Numbered from the stretch's first letter, positions 1,774-62,266 are shown. The stretch is DNA of 64,000 nt from Candidatus Zixiibacteriota bacterium (GCA_014730175.1 WJIR01000314.1:92-64091); one strand, 5' to 3'. Translations and numbers: made by a program. Notes: generated by a model from the letters alone, not told the origin.

Positions 1774-3825
1774 ATGAGAAAATTGGCGGAAAGTGTAGCT
1801 CTGGGGGTGATGGTTGCATTTTTACTGCAGCTTTTCTTCGCCGGAACCTATCTTAATGCGGCTGAAGGAGATAATCAGGATCCGAAAAACAGAATCGGCG
1901 CTCTCGGTTTTGAACCTTCAGAAGAAGAAATTAAACTTTTCGAGGAATTAGATAAGCAGCCGCCTCCGCCGTTGCTGTTGGACGATGAGCGTTGGGATTG
2001 GCGCGAAAATAGCGGCGTTACTCCCGTGAAAAACCAGGGCGATTGCGGTTCCTGCTGGGCATTTGCTGGAGTGGGAGCGTTTGAATCAGCGATTATTATT
2101 GCGGATTCGGTCGAATGGGATTTGTCCGAGCAGCAGGTGGTGGACTGTAACCTGTATGGCGGAAGCTGTAATGGCGGCTCGGCTCATTATGCCTATAATC
2201 TCTTCTTCACCACCGGTGCGGTTGAGGAAGAATGCTATCCATACCGAGCTCAGGATATGAACTGCGGTCAGGATAGTTGTGTTACCATGGTTTTCCTTGA
2301 CGATGCGGAGAGTGTTCCTAACAATGTGGAATCTATCAAAAACTCATTGATTAATGGCCCCGTATCATCGACATTCACTGTTTTCGATGGTTTCCACTGG
2401 GACTGCTATGACGGTCCGGACAATGAACCTTCCAACCATGCAATCGTAATCGTAGGTTGGGATGATAATATGTGCGGTGATGGCGCCTGGATATGCAAAA
2501 ATAGCTGGGGAGCGAGTTGGGGAGACGACGGTTACTTCTATATACCTTATTACTCCTGCGGAATGGGGAGATTTACCCAGAGACCGATTTACAACTCCAA
2601 TTACCCGGTTTTAACTTACAGTCTGGAGAATATTGAGGTTAATGTTGAAGAAGGCGGCCAATCCACCGATATTCTGCAACTGGGAAACACCGGTGAACGC
2701 GCCCTTTATTTCGCTATCGATTTAGCTCCGTCCTCGATTGTTGACTCATTCGGTTATTACTGGCTGCATTCCGATACTACCGGAGGTCCTGTTTACGACT
2801 GGGTTGATATCACCCAAGAAGGTCAGATAATAGAATTTTCGGGAAATCCTTCTTATGGTAATTCCGGTCATCTTCCGCTGGGATTCAATTTCAATTATTA
2901 TGGAAACAACTACAACAGTATTTGTGTCTGCTCGAATGGATGGGCTTCTTTTACCGATAGCACATCCAGTTCCAGCTATGCGCGGCATTTCCCCGAGGAT
3001 GCCGATCCCAATAATGTTATAGCGCCATTCTGGGCAAATCTCGTTCCGAATCCCGACTCCAATGCCAATATCTATTTTTATACCAATAATTCCGATTCGG
3101 CCGTTATATCCTGGGTGGATATCCCGGATGGATTGCATGATGGCAAATATACATTCCAGATCGTATTGGTCAAACCCAATACGGTTGTTCTTCAATATGA
3201 ATCTATGGATCCCAACGGTCCTCTTGACCTGGCTTCCACCGGGATGGAAAATGCTACAGGGACAGTCGGACTCGAGGTGGCTTATCATGAGCCGTTCACC
3301 ACTGACGGCAAGGCAGTGAAATTTATTTTGGGTACTCCACCCGGCGAGTTCGATTGGTTATCAACGGATATCGATGACGGTGTTGTGCCGCTTGGAGGAT
3401 TCCTGGATGTAAGCGTAACATGTGATGCCGGAGACCATCCTGCGGGGATCTATCGCGGTGTGCTTGAATTGTACTGTAACGATCCGTATGCAAAGCATGT
3501 ATATATTCCGGTTAATATGTATGTTGGCGCGGCAACCGTGGATGAAGATGGAGCAATTCCTTACAAAGTATCATTGCAGCAAAACTACCCCAATCCGTTC
3601 AACGCAAGCACGGAGATAACGTATTCGCTAACAACCGGATCCGAGGTCTGTTTGGAAGTTTACAACCTTTTAGGCCAGAAAGTTGAAACGCTAATCGATT
3701 CCAAGCAGAATACCGGATATCATTCGGTCAACTGGGATGCTTCTGAGTATGCATCGGGCATATACCTGTATAAACTTACGGTCAACGATCAGGTGTACAG
3801 AAAGCGTATGACACTGCTGAAATAG
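1774..3825 (+). CDS. secreted papain-family (C1) cysteine peptidase with a T9SS C-terminal sorting domain
   Basis: Has an N-terminal signal peptide and the active-site motif QGDCGSCWAFAGVGAFES (papain Cys box). The C-terminal ~80 aa, LQQNYPNPFNASTEITYSL…GIYLYKLTVNDQVYRKRMTLLK, is a typical Por/T9SS type-A sorting domain. Confidence 0.9.
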   Translation: MRKLAESVALGVMVAFLLQLFFAGTYLNAAEGDNQDPKNRIGALGFEPSEEEIKLFEELDKQPPPPLLLDDERWDWRENSGVTPVKNQGDCGSCWAFAGVGAFESAIIIADSVEWDLSEQQVVDCNLYGGSCNGGSAHYAYNLFFTTGAVEEECYPYRAQDMNCGQDSCVTMVFLDDAESVPNNVESIKNSLINGPVSSTFTVFDGFHWDCYDGPDNEPSNHAIVIVGWDDNMCGDGAWICKNSWGASWGDDGYFYIPYYSCGMGRFTQRPIYNSNYPVLTYSLENIEVNVEEGGQSTDILQLGNTGERALYFAIDLAPSSIVDSFGYYWLHSDTTGGPVYDWVDITQEGQIIEFSGNPSYGNSGHLPLGFNFNYYGNNYNSICVCSNGWASFTDSTSSSSYARHFPEDADPNNVIAPFWANLVPNPDSNANIYFYTNNSDSAVISWVDIPDGLHDGKYTFQIVLVKPNTVVLQYESMDPNGPLDLASTGMENATGTVGLEVAYHEPFTTDGKAVKFILGTPPGEFDWLSTDIDDGVVPLGGFLDVSVTCDAGDHPAGIYRGVLELYCNDPYAKHVYIPVNMYVGAATVDEDGAIPYKVSLQQNYPNPFNASTEITYSLTTGSEVCLEVYNLLGQKVETLIDSKQNTGYHSVNWDASEYASGIYLYKLTVNDQVYRKRMTLLK

Positions 3826-25507: not shown

Positions 25508-25581
25508 AGCCACCGAGGGGAGTCGCACCCCTGACCTGCTGATTACGAATCAGCTGCTCTGGCCATCTGAGCTACGGTGGC
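25508..25581 (-). tRNA. tRNA-Thr (anticodon CGT)
   Basis: Reverse complement GCCACCG-TA-GCTC-AGATGGCCA-GAGC-A-GCTGA-TTCGTAA-TCAGC-AGGTC-AGGGG-TGCGACT-CCCCT-CGGTGGC-T folds as a cloverleaf with anticodon CGT. The T-loop reads TGCGACT, i.e. G at position 55 where U is nearly universal. Confidence 0.75.
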
Positions 25582-25721: not shown

Positions 25722-25803
25722 GCGAGAGTGGCGGAATTGGCAGACGCGCCGGACTTAGGATCCGGTCCTTCACGGGGTGGGGGTTCGAGTCCCCCCTTTC
25801 GCA
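25722..25803 (+). tRNA. tRNA-Leu (anticodon TAG), class II with a long variable arm
   Basis: Acceptor stem GCGAGAG/CTTTCGC (one G·U pair), anticodon arm CCGGA-CTTAGGA-TCCGG, a long variable arm, T-arm GGGGG-TTCGAGT-CCCCC and discriminator A. Confidence 0.85.
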
Positions 25804-25934: not shown

Positions 25935-27257
25935 CTACTTCACCAGCAACATCCGTTTGGTCTCGAAATAACCGGGGGTCATTAGCCGGTATAGATATTC
26001 ACCGCTTGCCAGCCCATTAGCTCTAAAGTTCAAAGTATACGAACCGGCATCGAGAATTCCATCATAGACTTTACATACCTCTTTGCCGAGGATATTATAC
26101 AGCCTTATACTGACGGGAGAGCGCCTGGGAACATTAAGTCCTATGGTGGTTGATTCATTGAATGGATTGGGATAATTTTGTCGTAAGCTAAATCCTGTCG
26201 AAATCGAAGCATCCGCCGATGGATTAGAACGACTCCAGATCGAACCGCCCTCCGGTCTCTCATTCAATTCTATAATCTCAACTTGATCCAAATCCGAGGT
26301 GCCCAATCCACGCTCTTCCGCTCGCTGTAGCGTCGGTTCGGCCATTGACGCCGAGAAAGTGGGATCATGTTTTTCGAGTAGATTGGCGCAATATGCGTCA
26401 GTTGCCACAATATCCCCGCAGATTATAATTCTGTCCGTATTGACCAGTACAGTCTCTTCATGAATCACAGGCCCAAATATCGTCATCAGGACTCTGGCGT
26501 CAACTATATTCAACTCGGGTCTGATCAATCCCGCTATTTCCGCCACCTCCTCCCTTAGAAACTGGCTGTGGTTGGCATGTATAAATAGCCGGGTGCCGGT
26601 TCTATTTGAGCCGGTGACTGCTCCGACATGGTTTTTGATAGCACAAGTCAAGTCAGCCTGGAAATGCTTTTTTAGATTGCAGAGGTTTATGATTATTGGC
26701 GCATCATAAACCTCCGAATATACCTCGAAATCTGGTCTTTCCTGATCCCAGGAAGGATGTCTTACATTGTAGGGATTCGAAAAAGCTATCAACTCCCCGC
26801 CTGCTTGCGGAACGATCTCATCCAAATTGAGGAAGGGGTAAACGATTTGCGGCGGTCTCCATCCCTGGTCGCCAACATATACTGTACCGTTAGTTGTGCT
26901 TACTACCGACATTATCAATTCGGTGAGAAAATCGGGATCGGTCGATGCCGGGTAGTACTGATCAGTCAGAAAATTAGGTTTTATTAGAACATCCTGATCC
27001 GAGTTAATCAGCCGACCCAATCCACCTATCGCGGTTAAGCCGGTAGCGAGCATATTATTGATGTCAGTGCCTTTGACGCATACCAATACAGGTTTACCCT
27101 CAGGTGTCACAAAGGGATTGGGCAAGCCGACTCTGGGATAAAGGGAAGGATTCAACTTACTTAGAGCTCCAACCGGATTCGCTAAAGTGAAAGCCGAAGC
27201 CATCCCGCCGGATAGCGACTTTATAAATGTTCGTCTGGATTGCGATGAATCATTCAA
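25935..27257 (-). CDS. DUF362-domain protein with an N-terminal twin-arginine (Tat) signal and a T9SS C-terminal sorting domain
   Basis: N-terminus MNDSSQSRRTFIKSLSGGMASAFTLA (SRRxFIK Tat motif); DUF362-like core (…LIKPNF…, …AIKNHVGAV…R…H); the C-terminus LRQNYPNPFNESTTIGL…GEYLYRLMTPGYFETKRMLLVK is a type-A T9SS sorting domain. Confidence 0.6.
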   Translation of the reverse strand: MNDSSQSRRTFIKSLSGGMASAFTLANPVGALSKLNPSLYPRVGLPNPFVTPEGKPVLVCVKGTDINNMLATGLTAIGGLGRLINSDQDVLIKPNFLTDQYYPASTDPDFLTELIMSVVSTTNGTVYVGDQGWRPPQIVYPFLNLDEIVPQAGGELIAFSNPYNVRHPSWDQERPDFEVYSEVYDAPIIINLCNLKKHFQADLTCAIKNHVGAVTGSNRTGTRLFIHANHSQFLREEVAEIAGLIRPELNIVDARVLMTIFGPVIHEETVLVNTDRIIICGDIVATDAYCANLLEKHDPTFSASMAEPTLQRAEERGLGTSDLDQVEIIELNERPEGGSIWSRSNPSADASISTGFSLRQNYPNPFNESTTIGLNVPRRSPVSIRLYNILGKEVCKVYDGILDAGSYTLNFRANGLASGEYLYRLMTPGYFETKRMLLVK

Positions 27258-27342
27258 GTTTGCACCTGCATTATTCTAATTACCGTACACATAGGAACCC
27301 ATTATACAGTTTGAATGTTAATTAGGTCCCGGAGACCAACAT

Positions 27343-28671
27343 TTATTTAACCAACGTCATTGATTTCGTTTCCATTATTCCCGGCGCCGATAAACGATAG
27401 AAATATTTACCGCTGGGTAAGCCGTTGGCGTTGAAGGTTACCGTGTGGGAACCGGCGTGATAAATATCATGTGTTATTGTCGTAACCTCCTTTCCTAACA
27501 TATCATATAGTCTGATATCAATGGGCGCGCTCCGACGCGTCTTGAACCTGATAGACGTGGTTGCATTAAATGGATTCGGATAATTCTGCTCCAGAGCAAT
27601 TGCATCGGGTACGCCGTTCAAATCCGAGTAATGCGGCTTTGAGGATATAGAACCGCCTATAGGTTGTTCGGGAAGTTCGATAATCTCAACATCATCCAAA
27701 CTCGATACACCCAATCCCAGCTCTATCGCCCTATCTATTGTTGGTTCTATCATCTCCGCATCGAAAGTAGGATCGTATTCTTGCATCACCTGTGCGCAAT
27801 ACAAGTCGGTCGCAATTATATCGCCACAGAGAATAAGTAAGTTGGCATCGGCGAGAATTGTGTCCTCATTTGGAGTAGGTCCATAAATTGTCATGATGGT
27901 GCGGGCATCCACAATACATAACTCCGGATTAACCAATCCTGCTAATTCCGCTATATCCTGAAAAAGATGTTCATCGTTGTTCTCATGTATATATGAACGC
28001 GTACCTACTCGATATGGACCATTGACGGTCCCAACATGATTTTTCAGGCAGCATGTCAATTTGGCGTGTTCGCGGCCATGTCTCTTTAGCGTCGGCATAT
28101 TGATAACGATCGATGAATCATATATATCGCTCCAAACTTCAAAATCCGGCTTCTGAGGATGCCATGATAGCCTTCTGACATTATAAGTTTGTTCAAACAT
28201 CACCGGCACACCTCCGGCCTGACTTACAATCCCTTCGACATCAAGGTAGGGATATACTATATCGGCAGGGAGATATCCCTGATCCCCTACCTTAATTGAG
28301 CCCGAAGATACCTGCTTTATTACTTGTATCACCTCGACAATCGCTTCCAGCGACGTTGTTGTGGGATAGTACTGGTCAACCACAAAATTCGGATTTATGA
28401 GACAATCCTGATTTCCGTCGAAAAGCAAATCCAATCCGCCCAATGCACTTAAACCGGTATGCAGCATGGCTCTTAAATCAGTGCCTTTGACCGCTGCTAA
28501 AATCGGCTTGCCTTCATTGTTTACAAACGGATTCGGGATTCGCTCCCGTGGTCCCACGGTTTTACCGCTTGCGGCAAAAATATAGCTGTAAGGATGAAAT
28601 GCAATTAGAGATGCCGCTCCTCCGGACAGGATTTTCAGAAAATCCCTCCTGGAATTAGATTTGTTCCACAT
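27343..28671 (-). CDS. DUF362-domain protein with a Tat signal and T9SS sorting domain (tandem paralog of the gene at 25935..27257)
   Basis: N-terminus MWNKSNSRRDFLKILSGGAASLIAF (a textbook SRRxFLK motif) and the same DUF362 core; the C-terminus LEQNYPNPFNATTSIRF…GKYFYRLSAPGIMETKSMTLVK is a T9SS sorting domain. Roughly 45-50% identical to the neighbouring gene by eye. Confidence 0.6.
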   Translation of the reverse strand: MWNKSNSRRDFLKILSGGAASLIAFHPYSYIFAASGKTVGPRERIPNPFVNNEGKPILAAVKGTDLRAMLHTGLSALGGLDLLFDGNQDCLINPNFVVDQYYPTTTSLEAIVEVIQVIKQVSSGSIKVGDQGYLPADIVYPYLDVEGIVSQAGGVPVMFEQTYNVRRLSWHPQKPDFEVWSDIYDSSIVINMPTLKRHGREHAKLTCCLKNHVGTVNGPYRVGTRSYIHENNDEHLFQDIAELAGLVNPELCIVDARTIMTIYGPTPNEDTILADANLLILCGDIIATDLYCAQVMQEYDPTFDAEMIEPTIDRAIELGLGVSSLDDVEIIELPEQPIGGSISSKPHYSDLNGVPDAIALEQNYPNPFNATTSIRFKTRRSAPIDIRLYDMLGKEVTTITHDIYHAGSHTVTFNANGLPSGKYFYRLSAPGIMETKSMTLVK

Positions 28672-29070
28672 GTAAACCTCATGTTTTTATTATTACATTT
28701 GTTAGACGTTTCATTCGGTGTCTTAAACCACGCGGATTTCAAATAGGAGATATTATCAGTATACATCAACAACACGAAAGGAGATAAATTCTTAACACCC
28801 GGAACAGGTATCTCCCGTATGTATCATTGCGTCGGGGATGATTACCAATATCCCTATTAATTCGCTATAGGATAGCAAATGTCTCCGCTAAAAAATAGCA
28901 ATTTAGTCTAACGGAGAACTACCTTCGCAGACCGCTACGATATGAATTTTTCAAATAACATCTTTGTCTGAAAAGAAAAGGAAGCTGACAAAGGATCGAA
29001 TCAATGCATCACAACTATAGTAGTTTTGCTAAAGATAAAATGGATTCCTGTTTTGTCAAGAAATTTTAGA

Positions 29071-29242
29071 TGAATAATTCGGGTTTGAATTATTCATAAA
29101 AAACATTAATTCGTAGCCGAAGGTTTGTCCATCGGTAGCTCAAGTGAATTAGAATATTTACAGACTGTAATTGAGAATTACAAAGAAATGCCGGAAGCGC
29201 AAGGCTTCCGCTGCCGGTGACTAAATTTATGAATAATACAGG
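29071..29242 (+). repeat. MITE-like repeat, copy A (partly degraded, with a duplicated terminus at the left junction)
   Basis: About 90% identical over ~150 bp to copy B at 36213..36366, including the internal hairpin GGAAGC-GCAAG-GCTTCC. The left end reads TGAATAATTCGGGTT directly abutting GAATTATTCATAAA, and the right end reads TTTATGAATAATACAGG. Confidence 0.6.
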
Positions 29243-29617
29243 CTAAATCCGAAGAATGTACGCAAATCAGAATCCTTAAACCGGCGGGATAACCGGCTCG
29301 GCAGGAATCCAATCTCGAGATCGCTCCGGATATTAATCCGGATGGGAAGTGACTATCGGATACTGAAGAATATCCCGAGATGCACTGCTGAAGATGGAAA
29401 AAAACGATTTCTGTAGATGATGATGAAAAATGGGGTTGACAAATACCAATATGATTTATATGCATTTATAGTGGGCTGTTTCGGGTCCCATAGTGATTCG
29501 CCTCTTCCTGGAAGGAGTTCATAGGGCATATACCCGGAAGCCAGAAGCGGATAACATACTTTTCGAGCGATAATACTAAGAACGATTTCGAAGGAGATCT
29601 CTGAACTCTAACAGCTA

Positions 29618-59845: not shown

Positions 59846-60724
59846 ATGGCAAAACTAAGAGATTATGTCATCGCTTGCAGGCCAGCCCAATGGGTTAAAA
59901 ACGGTCTTGTGTTTGCTGGGTTGATTTTTGCAGTTAAGTTTACCAATCCAACGCTGGTTGCGCGAGCTATCGTTGCGTTTATAGCATTCAGCTTCTTATC
60001 AAGCGCTGTTTATTTATACAATGATATTCAGGATCGAGAGTTTGACCGGGCTCATCCCAAGAAAAAAAACCGTCCTATTGCAGCCGGAAGAATCCCTATA
60101 TGGAGCGCATACTTATTGTCATTTGTGTTGGCGGTACTTTCCCTTTCGGTTTGCTTCTATATTAACAATCCCCTGGGCATCATCGCCTTATCATATATGA
60201 TTATGAATATCCTTTATTCGCAATTCTTGAAACAGATTGTTATTCTGGATGTCATGATTATTGCCATCGGTTTTGTCCTGAGAGCTGTAGCCGGAGCTTA
60301 TGCGGTAAATGTCTCTATCTCGCCATGGTTGTTAATCAATACAATCCTGCTTGCGCTTTTTCTCGGATTCGGAAAAAGACGTTACGAAGTCGTACTTCTG
60401 GATGCAAATAAAACTAATCACCGTAAAATACTGGATCAATACAGTTTGCCATTTCTGGATCAGATGATATCGGTCACTACAGCATCGTCAGTTGTCATTT
60501 ATGCTATGTACACTATGTCCATCGATGCGAAGTTTGCGGCAAAGAATATGCATCTGGAACTAACGATTCCTTTTGTAGTATATGGAATATTCAGGTATCT
60601 TTATATAGTTTATCATAAAGCGGAGGGAGGATCTCCCACTGAAGCCTTGGTTGCCGATAGACCGATATTGGTAAATATCATCTTGTGGTTGGCTGCAGTT
60701 ATTTTAATCTTTATGTTATCATAA
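59846..60724 (+). CDS. UbiA-family prenyl-phosphate phosphoribosyltransferase-like protein (decaprenyl-phosphate 5-phosphoribosyltransferase / DPPR-synthase-like)
   Basis: Eight to nine TM helices and the motif YLYNDIQDREFDRAHPKKKNRPIAAGRI, which is the NDxxDxxxDRxHPxKxxRPIAxG variant characteristic of the Rv3806c-type subfamily of UbiA enzymes. Confidence 0.7.
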   Translation: MAKLRDYVIACRPAQWVKNGLVFAGLIFAVKFTNPTLVARAIVAFIAFSFLSSAVYLYNDIQDREFDRAHPKKKNRPIAAGRIPIWSAYLLSFVLAVLSLSVCFYINNPLGIIALSYMIMNILYSQFLKQIVILDVMIIAIGFVLRAVAGAYAVNVSISPWLLINTILLALFLGFGKRRYEVVLLDANKTNHRKILDQYSLPFLDQMISVTTASSVVIYAMYTMSIDAKFAAKNMHLELTIPFVVYGIFRYLYIVYHKAEGGSPTEALVADRPILVNIILWLAAVILIFMLS

Positions 60725-60734
60725 AAGGAAGAAA

Positions 60735-61814
60735 ATGAAGAAAGCTAAAGTAGCGGTTTTAAAAACAAAACCGGATTCAGTAATTGAGGATCATATAAAA
60801 CTCGGGAGGATGGCGGGGATTAGCGAATCTTTGGAAAAAGGTAAAACCACCATCCTCAAGGATAATATATCCTGGCATTTTCCTTTCCCGGGAGCAAATA
60901 CCACCCCATGGCAGTTGGAAGGCTGTATCAGGGCGCTGCAGGACGAAGGATACGCCGATCTGGTTGATGTCCATAATGATACCGTAGTGACCGATCCTTA
61001 TAAAGGCGAAAAGCTGAATAAATACGATGTCGTCTACAAGAAATATGATATACCGGTTAAGTATAATTTCAAGAAAGAGGATATCAGGTGGGAACGGTAT
61101 GAACCCGAAGGCGAGATGATCGCGCTGAAGGAAATATATCCTAAGGGAATTTATATACCGGAATTCTTCAGGGATAAGAACATCGTCCACCTGCCCACAG
61201 TGAAATCGCATATCTATACCACCATGACCGGCGCTATGAAAAACGCCTTCGGGGGATTGCTAAATACCCGCCGCCATTATACCCACAGCGTAATCCACGA
61301 AACATTGGTGGACTTACTGACAATCCAAAAGGAGATTCATAGCGGTTTATTCTGTTTCATGGATGGCACCACCGCCGCCTCCGGTCCCGGACCCCGCACC
61401 ATGACTCCGGTGCAAAAGGATGTGATTATGGCATCGGGCGATATGGTAGCGATCGATGCAGTATCGGCTAAAATCATGGGATTCGACCCGATGGAGATTA
61501 AATGTATCCGGCTTGCGCACGACAGGGGATTGGGGATCGGGAATTTCGATGAGATTGAAATCGTGGGCGAGGATGTATCCGATTGGAATTTCAATTTTAC
61601 GGTAGGCGATAATATGCCGTCATTGGTGGGAGACCTGCTCTGGTATTCGCCGCTGAAAGTACTGCAGAAGCTGTTTTTCCACACTCCTTTAGTATACATA
61701 TTTGTTTTCGCTTCGTTCTTTTATCACGATTATCTCTGGTATCCGATAAAAGGACGGCAGATAGTCAATGACTGGCTGAAAACCGAGTGGGGGCAGTTGT
61801 TCGAGAGGTATTAA
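60735..61814 (+). CDS. DUF362-domain protein (cytoplasmic paralog; no signal peptide or sorting domain)
   Basis: …ILKDNISWHFPFP…, …VKSHIYTTMTGAMKNAFGGLLNTRRHYTHSVIHETL…, …GFDPMEIKCIRLAHDRGLG… is the same conserved core as the two Tat/T9SS genes at 25935..28671. Confidence 0.55.
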   Translation: MKKAKVAVLKTKPDSVIEDHIKLGRMAGISESLEKGKTTILKDNISWHFPFPGANTTPWQLEGCIRALQDEGYADLVDVHNDTVVTDPYKGEKLNKYDVVYKKYDIPVKYNFKKEDIRWERYEPEGEMIALKEIYPKGIYIPEFFRDKNIVHLPTVKSHIYTTMTGAMKNAFGGLLNTRRHYTHSVIHETLVDLLTIQKEIHSGLFCFMDGTTAASGPGPRTMTPVQKDVIMASGDMVAIDAVSAKIMGFDPMEIKCIRLAHDRGLGIGNFDEIEIVGEDVSDWNFNFTVGDNMPSLVGDLLWYSPLKVLQKLFFHTPLVYIFVFASFFYHDYLWYPIKGRQIVNDWLKTEWGQLFERY

Positions 61815-61909
61815 AACCAAAGCCAAAGAATGCCCTAAAATGTTGATTATTGTACCCTAATAGGGTAGATTTGTACCGAAATTGGGTACAGATAAGAGGA
61901 TGACAATAA

Positions 61910-62266
61910 ATGATTCAAATTCTTTACATGATAGGCGCGATACTGCTCAATGTTTGTGGACATTCCTTCCTCAAAGCCGGGATGACGCGGGTGGGCCCTA
62001 TAACCGGAAGTTTTCTACATTATGCGTATAATGCGGTTACGACTCCGCTGGTTATATTGGGGCTGTTCAGCTATGTGGCATCGGTAAGTTTATATATGCT
62101 GGTACTCTCCAAAACCGACCTTTCTTTTGCATACCCGCTTTTGATGAGTATCGGGTACGTATTGATTGTGCTGGTTTCATTTTTAATATTCAAAGAGCCA
62201 TTTTCCGCATACAAATGGGTCGGAATCGTATTGATTTTAATCGGGGTGATATTGGTGGGGAGGTAA
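61910..62266 (+). CDS. small 4-TM SMR/EamA-like transporter (ArnE/ArnF-like flippase-subunit architecture)
   Basis: 118 aa with four hydrophobic helices and a small-multidrug-resistance-like fold (…FLKAGMTRVG…, …FAYPLLMSIGYVLIVLVSFLIFKE…). Confidence 0.45.
   Translation: MIQILYMIGAILLNVCGHSFLKAGMTRVGPITGSFLHYAYNAVTTPLVILGLFSYVASVSLYMLVLSKTDLSFAYPLLMSIGYVLIVLVSFLIFKEPFSAYKWVGIVLILIGVILVGR

Follow-up and report, generated by a model that had tools for sequence, protein, structure and literature searches.

Results

The 64-kb stretch of DNA analysed here (hereafter, the window) carries two adjacent paralogous genes, each predicted to encode a Tat-type leader, a DUF362 core with a LarA-like fold and a type-A sorting domain for secretion by the type IX system (T9SS). 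Gene A (25935..27257, minus strand) was called as an ORF of 440 aa with a TTG start, and gene B (27343..28671, minus strand) as an ORF of 442 aa with an ATG start, the latter with Pfam and NCBIfam scores above cut-off. Both start codons are confirmed by Shine-Dalgarno-like ribosome-binding sites, with AGGTG 5 nt upstream of the start of gene A and GAGG 6 nt upstream of that of gene B. The DUF362 profile (PF04015, cut-off 24 bits) covers residues 90-291 of A (26385..26990, minus strand; 107.4 bits) and residues 91-293 of B (27793..28401, minus strand; 79.7 bits), upholding the tandem of DUF362 paralogs described in a sequence-only reading of this locus. The core domains of A and B are 53% identical, and the gene A product is 100% identical to a protein annotated from a Zixibacteria metagenome-assembled genome (MAG) (P0001); A, B and all their relatives are known from MAG sequences. 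DUF362 is a large family without assigned function, comprising 2,659 clusters at 50% identity (E<=1e-10).

A third DUF362 paralog, which the same reading had described as lacking any signal, is indeed present at 60735..61814 (plus strand; PF04015 85.5 bits against the cut-off of 24), flanked by a UbiA prenyltransferase gene on one side and an SMR/EamA-like gene on the other. It has neither signal peptide nor C-terminal domain (CTD), and keeps a K-x-H...K-N motif.

The predicted signal peptide of A spans residues 1-31 (MNDSSQSRRTFIKSLSGGMASAFTLANPVGA; 27165..27257, minus strand) and contains the twin-arginine motif SRRTFIK at residues 7-13 (27219..27239, minus strand), while that of B spans residues 1-33 (MWNKSNSRRDFLKILSGGAASLIAFHPYSYIFA; 28573..28671, minus strand) and contains SRRDFLK at residues 7-13 (28633..28653, minus strand). 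Putative signal peptidase I sites follow V-G-A in A and I-F-A in B, the latter placed by the -3/-1 rule and the former likewise inferred. Both leaders match the Tat consensus, in which S/T-R-R-x-F-L-K precedes an h-region of moderate hydrophobicity (KD12 1.22 in A and 1.87 in B), and residues 18-30 of the A model show pLDDT < 50, as expected of a leader. As an internal comparator, the window encodes a papain-like (C1) protease (1774..3825, plus strand; C1 assigned from reading the sequence) that bears a near-identical T9SS sorting domain (CTD HMM 107.5 bits) behind a classical Sec leader without RR, whose KD12 of 2.59 lies above the values of both A and B.

Furthermore, the leader is conserved in the family. 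R8, R9 and F11 of A are invariant in a 79-sequence alignment with about 43% mean column identity, and RR is found in 113/120 best homologs, the remaining seven being N-truncated. In the leader logo (n=113), RR occupies 113/113 sequences, preceded by S/T at -1 in 96 and followed by F at +2 in 112, L/I at +3 in 100 and K at +4 in 93, with a mean KD of 1.57 in homolog h-regions. The motif was kept in 84 of the 109 full-length representatives of 50% identity clusters, besides RK and near-variants, and is held across >15 phyla, down to about 30-40% identity. Two short, low-information Tat models fell below their curated cut-offs: TIGR01409 gave 15.8 bits for B against 16.7 and no match for A, and PF10518 gave 13.4 (A) and 19.0 (B) against 22.7, reaching E<=0.01 in only 9/79 family members. 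The textbook Tat motifs proposed earlier are thus present and conserved, although the HMM scores stop just short of the cut-offs, and for this reason the Tat assignment rests mainly on family-wide conservation.

At the other end, T9SS type-A sorting domains occupy the extreme C-terminus of both proteins, corresponding to residues 362-440 of A (25938..26174, minus strand; TIGR04183 32 bits, PF18962 29.2 bits) and residues 364-442 of B (27346..27582, minus strand; YPNPFN...SGKYFYRL...KSMTLVK; TIGR04183 38.8 bits, PF18962 35.7 bits). All scores exceed the cut-offs of 23 bits (TIGR04183) and 27 bits (PF18962), in agreement with the sorting domains first recognised from the sequence alone, and the tails display the motifs YPNPF, G-x-Y and a terminal K-x-x-x-x-x-K. 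In the AlphaFold model of A (pLDDT 89.7), the tail is a beta-sandwich with pLDDT > 90, and Foldseek matched it to CTDs of T9SS cargo solved inside the translocon, namely NucA (8glk_D; TM-score by target length 0.65), mirolase (8qb1; 0.64) and RemZ (8gl8_D). Core and CTD of A are joined by a predicted disordered linker at residues 337-352 (26202..26249, minus strand; pLDDT < 50), which is likely the region where the T9SS sortase would remove the CTD. Moreover, the same tail is found on proteins encoded beside DUF362 genes, namely C25 and S8 peptidases, a VWA protein and an LVIVD propeller, in loci from LCP-89, Calditrichota and Zixibacteria. Within the DUF362 clade, the T9SS tail was found only in FCB-type and Gemmatimonadota lineages.

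These results confirm that a Tat-type leader and a genuine type-A T9SS sorting domain, as judged by sequence, are combined on both A and B. Among CTD-bearing ORFs of the window and the fetched loci, leaders were Tat-type in 16/17 members of the DUF362 clade and in 1/29 other proteins (Fisher p = 2.8e-10); 26 of these 29 lacked any RR motif, and two of the remaining three carried RR in otherwise Sec-like leaders. The single exception led to a second family, PLP aminotransferases (PF00155) with a T9SS tail, in which an [ST]RRxF[LI] leader was present in 113/120. Its gene adjoins DUF362 only in one Gemmatimonadota locus (L020), and it is not a conserved neighbour. Co-occurrence of the two signals in the window and the fetched loci thus exceeds chance; the unusualness supposed earlier holds with regard to the searchable literature but not within these phyla, where the pairing is not rare, is fixed across the DUF362 clade and recurs in the PLP aminotransferases. 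In the clade as a whole, the C-terminus varies between a T9SS tail, a dockerin (PF00404) and a lipobox, while the Tat leader is constant; predicted Tat export is ancestral to the clade, with T9SS tails added in particular lineages.

Regarding the core, structure prediction, advised in the earlier reading as a way to find a cofactor pocket, yielded a LarA-type two-domain alpha/beta fold for A, and the best solved Foldseek matches were all LarA-family nickel-pincer nucleotide (NPN) racemases (E 2e-6 to 1e-4). The putative active-site segment of A (HFQADLTCAIKNHVGAVTGSNRTGTRLFIH; 26577..26666, minus strand) contains H198, K208 and H227, invariant in 79/79 members, and motif search and column frequencies placed its counterpart in B at H198...K210...H229 (27985..28080, minus strand), with a two-residue insertion relative to A. 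In LarA, the aligned residues are His174, Lys184 and His200, which serve as catalytic His, NPN tether and nickel ligand, respectively. In sequence terms this mapping is weak. An hhalign comparison of the two initial alignments (DUF362 A1 vs LarA) was not significant (probability 0.25%), and the best local profile alignment paired all three residues at E = 0.024, its reported probability being 2%. A PDB-wide search with the family HMM returned Mar2 as sole match, at the active-site motif and with K208 aligned (E = 0.36). Against five LarA sequences, the best local HMM alignment fell in the active-site segment in 4/5 and aligned K208 in 3/5, with weak scores barely above reversed-sequence controls.

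Other LarA features differ. There is no Arg at the position aligned with the phosphate-binding Arg75, where K93-P-N95 fills the loop (K93 is near-invariant, but is replaced by N in B), and His108 falls opposite position 133, which varies (W, Y, G or F) and offers it no conserved counterpart. DUF362 and DUF2088 share one Pfam clan, CL0471 (PMC11770544), and no DUF2088 (Lar_N) match was obtained in A or B at E<=0.01. NPN enzymes have often been found through linkage to lar genes; no larB, larC or larE is visible in the window, and a search within 10 kb of the DUF362 gene turned up no lar gene at any of the 65 loci covered. Likewise, no tatA/tatC or T9SS machinery gene (SprA, PorV, PorU, GldK-N) was recognised in the window, which is incompletely annotated against HMM libraries.

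Discussion

We propose, from sequence and structural models, that A and B act as enzymes outside the cytoplasm and belong to a distinct clade of DUF362 whose fold is LarA-like. Both export signals are present and conserved, and we infer that both pathways are in fact used, so that A and B probably travel by Tat and then by the T9SS. The reading we favour as a whole, held with somewhat more confidence than doubt, is that a cofactor is inserted in the cytoplasm, after which Tat exports the folded enzymes and the T9SS carries them to the surface. The proteins would fold in the cytoplasm, most likely gaining their cofactor there, and the [ST]RRxF[LI]K leader would send them folded through the Tat translocase, with signal peptidase I releasing them into the periplasm. 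The T9SS would then move the enzyme to the cell surface, where the tail may be cut at the disordered linker, leaving the enzyme surface-attached or released.

That cofactor loading is the reason for Tat is an evenly balanced proposition. The leading candidate would be a cofactor of the nickel-pincer-nucleotide type, bound through K208 and H227 while H198 acts as acid/base, although we regard NPN itself as a tentative and rather unlikely assignment. Judging from their nucleotide-dependent chemistry, the NPN-related steps are presumably cytoplasmic; if so, an exported NPN enzyme must be loaded before export. The chemistry would likely be hydride-transfer epimerisation or oxidoreduction, with extracellular substrates of hydroxy-acid or sugar type. 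In the literature searched, no paper linking NPN with Tat was found.

The evidence should be weighed against other explanations. If the N-termini were ordinary Sec signals with a chance RR in the n-region, A and B would be conventional Sec-exported T9SS cargo, and the sub-threshold Tat HMM scores, the few PF10518 matches in the family and the two unrelated CTD proteins with RR in Sec-like leaders all point that way. However, Sec n-regions lack sequence conservation, whereas here the remainder of the leader varies but S/T-R-R-x-F-L/I-K is kept position by position in >100 sequences that are 30-50% identical; hydrophobicity in the h-regions is well below that of the Sec leader carried by the window's T9SS protease, and RR is missing from most other CTD proteins, which together make a Sec origin very improbable. 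It is almost as improbable that the T9SS makes no use of the C-terminal beta-sandwich and that this is an Ig-like or FlgD-like domain for adhesion or spacing, the enzymes staying periplasmic or membrane-associated after Tat. PF13860 (FlgD_ig) does match many of these tails, the window shows no T9SS machinery, no literature on T9SS in Zixibacteria was found, and relatives in other phyla are Tat lipoproteins that may face the periplasm; against this, two independent T9SS models are exceeded at curated cut-offs, the domain is strictly C-terminal with all three tail motifs, solved structures of cargo CTDs within the translocon match it, it recurs on typical secreted hydrolases in the window and in neighbouring genes, and it is restricted to FCB-type and Gemmatimonadota lineages.

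The reason for Tat is a separate matter. Since the Pfam text notes DUF362 in some iron-sulfur proteins (repeated in PMC5742341), A and B could be iron-sulfur proteins that need Tat on that account, as the sequence-only reading had hinted, but we give this almost no credence. The Pfam text concerns fusions with separate ferredoxin-type domains, which A and B lack; their conserved cysteines are isolated (for example C290, nearly invariant, C205 and C60) and form no cluster motif; and the fold of the A core and the invariant residues point to LarA and the nickel-pincer clan rather than to Fe-S proteins. Of the earlier suggestion of a cofactor-containing Tat substrate, the cofactor rationale thus stays plausible, but iron-sulfur does not. 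It is possible, though not likely, that the Tat-then-T9SS route is real and Tat serves another end, such as another cofactor or metal inserted in the cytoplasm, oligomerisation that must take place there (e.g., into an A/B heteromer) or folding that outpaces Sec. This would fit the lack of lar genes in the window and near the 65 loci, the missing Arg75 and His108 and the weak sequence mapping to LarA. Tandem DUF362 paralogs arose independently in Zixibacteria and Gemmatimonadota, which fits a hetero-oligomer, and single-catalytic-His LarA homologs bind NPN and form octamers (PMC12611868). In addition, aminotransferases of the second family use PLP and are typically dimeric, so Tat use may be general for cofactor-bearing or oligomeric enzymes. 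On the other hand, the three invariant polar residues align, albeit weakly, with precisely those LarA residues that hold NPN and transfer protons, and no other cofactor motif (Cys cluster, Rossmann GxGxxG) is evident in the consensus.

Returning to cytoplasmic loading followed by Tat and T9SS, a more far-reaching version, which we consider doubtful and offer as speculation, would make DUF362 a second LarA-like NPN scaffold and this clade the first extracytoplasmic NPN enzymes, displayed by T9SS (or, in other phyla, by lipid anchor or dockerin) and shuttling hydride on extracellular sugars or hydroxy acids; together with the PLP aminotransferases, Tat-then-T9SS would then be a dedicated route for cofactor enzymes in FCB and Gemmatimonadota. 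If true, cofactor-autonomous chemistry would be available outside the cell, where NAD(P)H is not, and a self-contained hydride-shuttling enzyme in that location would be a catalyst of a new type for extracellular redox or epimerisation reactions. New nickel-pincer enzymes are actively sought, and the apparent conservation of the LarA His/Lys/His positions combined with presumed obligatory folded export provides a concrete, falsifiable cofactor hypothesis for DUF362. The uncultured lineages that carry these proteins come from sediment and soil habitats and are thought to be polymer degraders.

With regard to secretion, reviews state that T9SS substrates enter through Sec, and that the T9SS transports folded proteins across the outer membrane (PMC9251779). 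The conflict drawn earlier between unfolded Sec cargo and folded Tat cargo consequently dissolves: because the T9SS already moves folded proteins, a Tat-then-T9SS route poses no mechanistic difficulty. The T9GPred rule, based on 102 experimentally verified cargos, demands a Sec signal and 'no Tat signal', and A and B fail it through their conserved SRRxF[IL]K and weakly hydrophobic h-region; pipelines of this type would systematically discard Tat-type T9SS cargo. The secretion literature that could be searched yielded no paper describing Tat-dependent T9SS cargo. In this context, two conserved enzyme families with a Tat leader and a T9SS tail imply an undescribed inner-membrane entry into the T9SS.

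Among known systems, classical type-A T9SS cargo (gingipains, NucA, mirolase, RemZ and TIGR04183 hydrolases) resembles A and B in the CTD beta-sandwich, the disordered linker, the enzymatic nature of the cargo and its encoding among other CTD proteins, and differs in its Sec-type N-terminal signal; moreover, unlike the classical hosts, the host of A and B belongs to a non-Bacteroidota candidate phylum. The PLP aminotransferase family shares the Tat leader, the Por_Secre_tail, a cofactor-enzyme character and similar phyla with A and B, but has an unrelated fold and a different cofactor. The Tat-lipoprotein and dockerin relatives of DUF362 possess the same core, Tat leader and extracytoplasmic tethering, their anchor being a lipobox Cys or a dockerin instead of the T9SS tail. 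DUF362-CBM9-dockerin proteins have been described in lignocellulose enrichments and linked to carbohydrate-degrading consortia (PMC5742341), and no CBM9 fusion occurred among the homologs retrieved here.

In the weak alignment with LarA, the DUF362 clade has in common H-x2-A-x2-[ST]-x3-K...H, spaced as His174, Ala177, Ser180 and Lys184, with His200 following after a three-residue gap. LarA has two catalytic histidines, of which A and B appear to keep one, as do the single-His NPN-binding homologs. A and B further belong to another Pfam family (DUF362), with marginal profile-profile similarity and without larBCE linkage, and are predicted to be exported, a signal peptide being absent from the account of the LarA family in PMC11770544. 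The phospholipases of Pseudomonas aeruginosa are examples of proteins that depend on Tat and are then secreted by the type II secretion system (T2SS). Tat-dependent T2SS substrates (PMC4899797) follow the same two-step logic proposed for A and B: Tat takes a folded protein over the inner membrane, and secretion is finished by outer-membrane machinery able to handle folded cargo, which is the T2SS in their case and the T9SS, together with a cleavable CTD, in that of A and B.

Results

Two tandem minus-strand genes, A (25935..27257; 440 aa, TTG start in the ORF listing) and B (27343..28671; 442 aa, ATG start in the ORF listing), lie 85 bp apart on the same strand and encode proteins in which a twin-arginine (Tat) leader, a DUF362 core and a C-terminal type-A T9SS sorting domain (the tail) are combined. 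The DUF362 match reached 107.4 bits in A and 79.7 bits in B (gathering score 24), and the sorting domain was recovered with the Pfam model (29.2 and 35.7 bits, respectively; cut-off 27) and with TIGR04183 of NCBIfam (32 and 38.8 bits; cut-off 23), the latter being the check proposed by the sequence-only reading. Since Shine-Dalgarno-like motifs precede both start codons at proper spacing, the RR-bearing N-termini are the real starts. The tandem pair described in that reading is genuine. Moreover, B is the more divergent copy: the near-invariant K93 (residue numbers follow protein A) of the (I/L)KPN loop is replaced by N, and a 2-residue insertion brings the spacing between the conserved His and Lys to 12, against the usual 10. 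Identical departures were seen in its ortholog P0003. Possibly B acts as a subunit with a specialised or regulatory role.

The third DUF362 paralog anticipated by the same reading is also present (60735..61814), with no domain found in it other than DUF362. This signal-less protein has a hydrophobic C-terminal region and retains the K-x-H...K-N motif, and its gene is flanked by genes for a UbiA-family prenyltransferase (59846..60724) and an SMR/EamA-like small membrane protein (61910..62266). Together, these three genes (59846..62266) may constitute a membrane-associated, lipid-linked pathway.

The chromosomal region around the A/B pair is unremarkable and includes housekeeping genes, the immediate neighbours of the pair encoding a DUF4159 protein, a DinB-family protein, a MobA-like nucleotidyltransferase and a xanthine/uracil permease. 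Two tRNA genes, tRNA-Thr (CGT; 25508..25581, minus strand) and tRNA-Leu (TAG; 25722..25803, plus strand), stand just downstream of A; a genomic island, which these flanking genes could suggest, was rejected, as the pair has a GC content of 0.45-0.47, in line with its surroundings. In the approximately 950 bp upstream of B (28672..29617) neither an ORF of convincing length nor an Rfam match was found; this gap holds a promoter-like site (29059-29032) and a terminator-like hairpin (29210-29192), both on the minus strand. In the closest genome (contig CAZLVS010000008.1, loci L009 and L001), where protein A has a counterpart at 88% identity, the tandem pair recurs in synteny, on a contig that stops about 0.4 kb past its own copy of the pair. 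The phylum label of this lineage varies by submitter, the closest genome being deposited as "uncultured Ignavibacteria", and the window record and homolog P0001, which is 100% identical to protein A, as candidate division Zixibacteria.

Outside the tandem pair itself, no neighbour of A or B was retained beside the gene in other lineages. A tandem pair of the same architecture also occurs in Gemmatimonadota (L020:9914-12805), and in a neighbour-joining tree without bootstrap A groups with B inside Zixibacteria, and the two Gemmatimonadota copies (67% identity) group together. Because each pair groups with itself in this unbootstrapped tree, the tree suggests independent tandem duplications in the two lineages. 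Further T9SS cargo genes surround the DUF362 gene in LCP-89, in Calditrichota and at one Zixibacteria locus. Across these three phyla (L017:5763-14910, L019:5808-15876 and L024:5817-11661) the cluster keeps one order, namely LVIVD-repeat propeller, VWA protein, Tat-DUF362 protein, and C25 gingipain-like or S8 subtilase peptidase, each ending in a T9SS C-terminal domain (CTD).

The Tat leader proved to be a constant feature of the clade. Among the best 120 homologs, 113 carry RRx[F][LI] within the first 60 residues, and the other seven, without an RR motif, are visibly N-truncated fragments. The leader logo reads S/T (96/113), R, R, x, F (112/113), L/I (100/113) and K (93/113). The string S/T-R-R-x-F-L/I-K is the Tat consensus as given in textbooks. 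When 1.84 billion representatives were searched exhaustively with a profile, 151 clusters were recovered at E<=1e-30; the strict motif is present in 84 of the 109 full-length cluster representatives, several further ones having RK or near-variants, and RR is found in all six of those with a T9SS tail. The clade, as judged from species-representative genomes, in which all carriers are MAGs, extends over Zixibacteria, LCP-89, Calditrichota, Gemmatimonadota, Fidelibacterota, Aminicenantes, Acidobacteriota, Thermodesulfobacteriota, Planctomycetota, Myxococcota, Poribacteria and others.

The C-terminus alone varies by lineage, with a T9SS tail in FCB-type phyla and Gemmatimonadota. In most short members a lipobox cysteine directly follows the Tat h-region, and a few members end in a dockerin. 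Since only the C-terminus differs between lineages, Tat export counts as the ancestral state of the clade, with the T9SS tail as a lineage-specific means of reaching the cell surface. A dockerin-bearing form was also seen in a Zixibacteria-labelled MAG (L018:5174-6385), and DUF362-CBM9-dockerin proteins are on record from lignocellulose enrichments (PMC5742341). Furthermore, the lipoprotein-form gene adjoins a DUF6599 gene at 12 loci (L062:11143-12156, and L040, L042, L044-L047, L053, L056, L061, L064 and L069) in Thermodesulfobacteriota, Poribacteria and Schekmanbacteria MAGs. The DUF6599 protein, itself with a lipoprotein-like N-terminus, may be a functional partner of the Tat-lipoprotein DUF362; it is absent from the window.

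Tat leaders are not a general property of T9SS-tailed proteins. In the window and the full set of fetched loci, 46 ORFs end in a T9SS tail; a Tat motif was present in 16 of the 17 that belong to the DUF362 clade, the lone exception being a truncated fragment, and a genuine Tat consensus in one of the remaining 29, two more of which have RR in otherwise Sec-like leaders (Fisher p = 2.8e-10 for the clade versus the others; 1.5e-8 when these two are counted as Tat). The pairing of Tat leader and T9SS tail is a specific association.

The single genuine case outside DUF362 (L020:4989-6509, Gemmatimonadota chromosome CP070758.1) lies 3.4 kb upstream of the tandem DUF362 pair of the same genome; its product scores 172.9 bits as a class I/II PLP aminotransferase and carries a Por_Secre_tail domain. 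Adjacency to DUF362 was seen at that locus alone and the neighbourhood is not conserved, by which the enzyme was dismissed as a functional partner of DUF362. Its best 120 homologs (P0121-P0240) all share the architecture, with [ST]RRxF[LI] in 113; of the seven without the strict motif, six are truncated and one is an RK variant. Two enzyme families that are not related to each other thus show, independently, a fixed Tat-plus-T9SS architecture, and one of them has a known cofactor (PLP). These aminotransferases form a large family, many of its members being labelled histidinol-phosphate aminotransferase by JGI, and occur in Gemmatimonadota, WOR-3, Marinimicrobia and further candidate divisions; an extracellular enzyme of this fold is unexpected in itself.

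The core fold is LarA-like. An AlphaFold model built from a 79-sequence alignment had a mean pLDDT of 89.7, with core and tail above 90 and with the leader and residues 337-352 disordered. The best Foldseek matches of the core in the PDB were exclusively nickel-pincer enzymes of the LarA (lactate racemase) family (7s91, 6d6z [malate racemase], 9eia, 8ezf, 6c1w, 5huq and 2yjg; E 2e-6 to 9e-4, probability 1.00, with modest TM-scores of 0.26-0.43), and those of the tail were T9SS cargo CTDs (8glk_D NucA, 8gl8_D RemZ and 8qb1 mirolase). DUF362 and the LarA domain DUF2088 are members of one Pfam clan (PMC11770544).

At the sequence level the relationship is faint. Protein A had no match in a sequence search against the PDB, and the family HMM matched, among all PDB sequences, Mar2 alone (E = 0.36), with ...KRH...K... 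aligned to ELHYKAGYSGGHK. The invariant polar residues of the 79-sequence alignment are R42, N47, N95, K196, H198, K208, R223, H227, D253 and D282. For comparison, tblastn against plasmids supplied the canonical larA-larB-larC-larE operon of L. plantarum as well as four further LarA genes. The first two alignments (DUF362 clade and LarA) gave a non-significant hhalign result, and global mode a meaningless alignment; local hhalign of a broadened DUF362 profile with LarA residues 41-201 gave E = 0.024, at a probability of 2% by hhalign's own estimate, and placed H198 on His174, K208 on Lys184 and, after a 3-residue gap, H227 on His200. In LarA, His174 serves as a catalytic acid/base, Lys184 tethers the cofactor covalently and His200 is the fourth ligand of the nickel (PMC11770544). 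Direct HMM scores on LarA were barely above reversed-sequence controls, and four of the five LarA sequences aligned best at the same segment.

Discussion

Our data bear out the core idea of the sequence-only reading, namely that Tat and T9SS signals coexist on the DUF362 pair; both are present and conserved. In the route that we propose, the enzyme would fold in the cytoplasm, where it would probably take up its cofactor, and would then be exported in folded form by Tat, released by signal peptidase I (putative sites: A, V-G-A; B, I-F-A), carried across the outer membrane by the T9SS on recognition of the C-terminal domain, and freed of its tail at the disordered linker. We infer the use of both pathways, and consider this routing likely.

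Against it stand two readings in which one of the signals is idle. The leader could be a Sec signal with a chance RR, and the dedicated Tat models, which are short, do score below cut-off (TIGR01409: B 15.8, slightly under 16.7; PF10518: A 13.4 and B 19.0, cut-off 22.7). R8, R9 and F11 are invariant in the 79-sequence alignment (mean column identity 43%), and the remaining leader is variable; the h-region hydrophobicity (KD12) is 1.22 in A and 1.87 in B, versus 2.59 in a T9SS-tailed protein of the window with an RR-less Sec leader (1774..3825, 683 aa), and the mean of the family leaders is 1.57. We regard a chance RR as very improbable. That the tail is unused by the T9SS is scarcely more credible, even if no paper on a T9SS in Zixibacteria or candidate phyla was found in the literature searched. 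The 1774..3825 product, by reading a papain-like cysteine protease, has nearly the same tail as A and B, and its Sec leader and tail show that conventional T9SS cargo exists in this organism.

Why Tat is used is a separate matter. That cofactor loading is the reason has about an even chance, in our judgement; that Tat serves another purpose, for instance oligomerisation or the loading of some other cofactor, is rather doubtful. The iron-sulfur hint of the sequence-only reading derived from Pfam text on fusions that are absent here, and an Fe-S protein was rejected, with neither a Cys cluster motif nor a ferredoxin domain present, leaving this explanation almost no weight; a LarA-like rationale takes its place. 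The identity of the cofactor and the chemistry we likewise infer, and the nickel-pincer nucleotide (NPN) specifically is a tentative candidate, more doubtful than not. In its favour, the motif H-x2-A-x2-[ST]-x3-K has identical spacing in LarA and in the DUF362 clade, and single-catalytic-His LarA homologs bind NPN, with a possible carbohydrate link (PMC12611868). In contrast, Arg75 and His108 of LarA lack a conserved counterpart in the clade, and a search for lar genes came up empty in the window and, at 65 loci, up to 10 kb from the DUF362 gene. A recent hunt for new NPN enzymes, with a His/Lys motif as supporting evidence, led to aldo-keto reductases and not to DUF362 (PMC13524815). The literature searched contained no DUF362-NPN link beyond DUF362 as outgroup, and nothing useful on Npun_F2552 or on the nickel pincer together with twin-arginine.

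The architecture joins known modules in a new way, and it offers a concrete hypothesis for DUF362, a large family of unknown function. Called unusual in the earlier reading, it does fall outside the current definition of T9SS cargo, in a way that is directly testable, but it is fixed and recurrent in these phyla and no one-off. Reviews give T9SS substrates as Sec-dependent, and folded proteins pass through the 36-strand SprA barrel (PMC9251779; PMC5445135), so that the conflict formerly seen between a Tat-exported protein and a system whose cargo is normally unfolded and Sec-exported does not arise. T9GPred recognises cargo by the presence of a Sec signal combined with the lack of a Tat one, a rule built on 102 experimentally verified cargos. 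No report of a Tat-dependent T9SS substrate was found in the literature searched. In brief, a Tat-then-T9SS route is mechanistically plausible, as it would follow the same two-step logic as Tat-then-T2SS.
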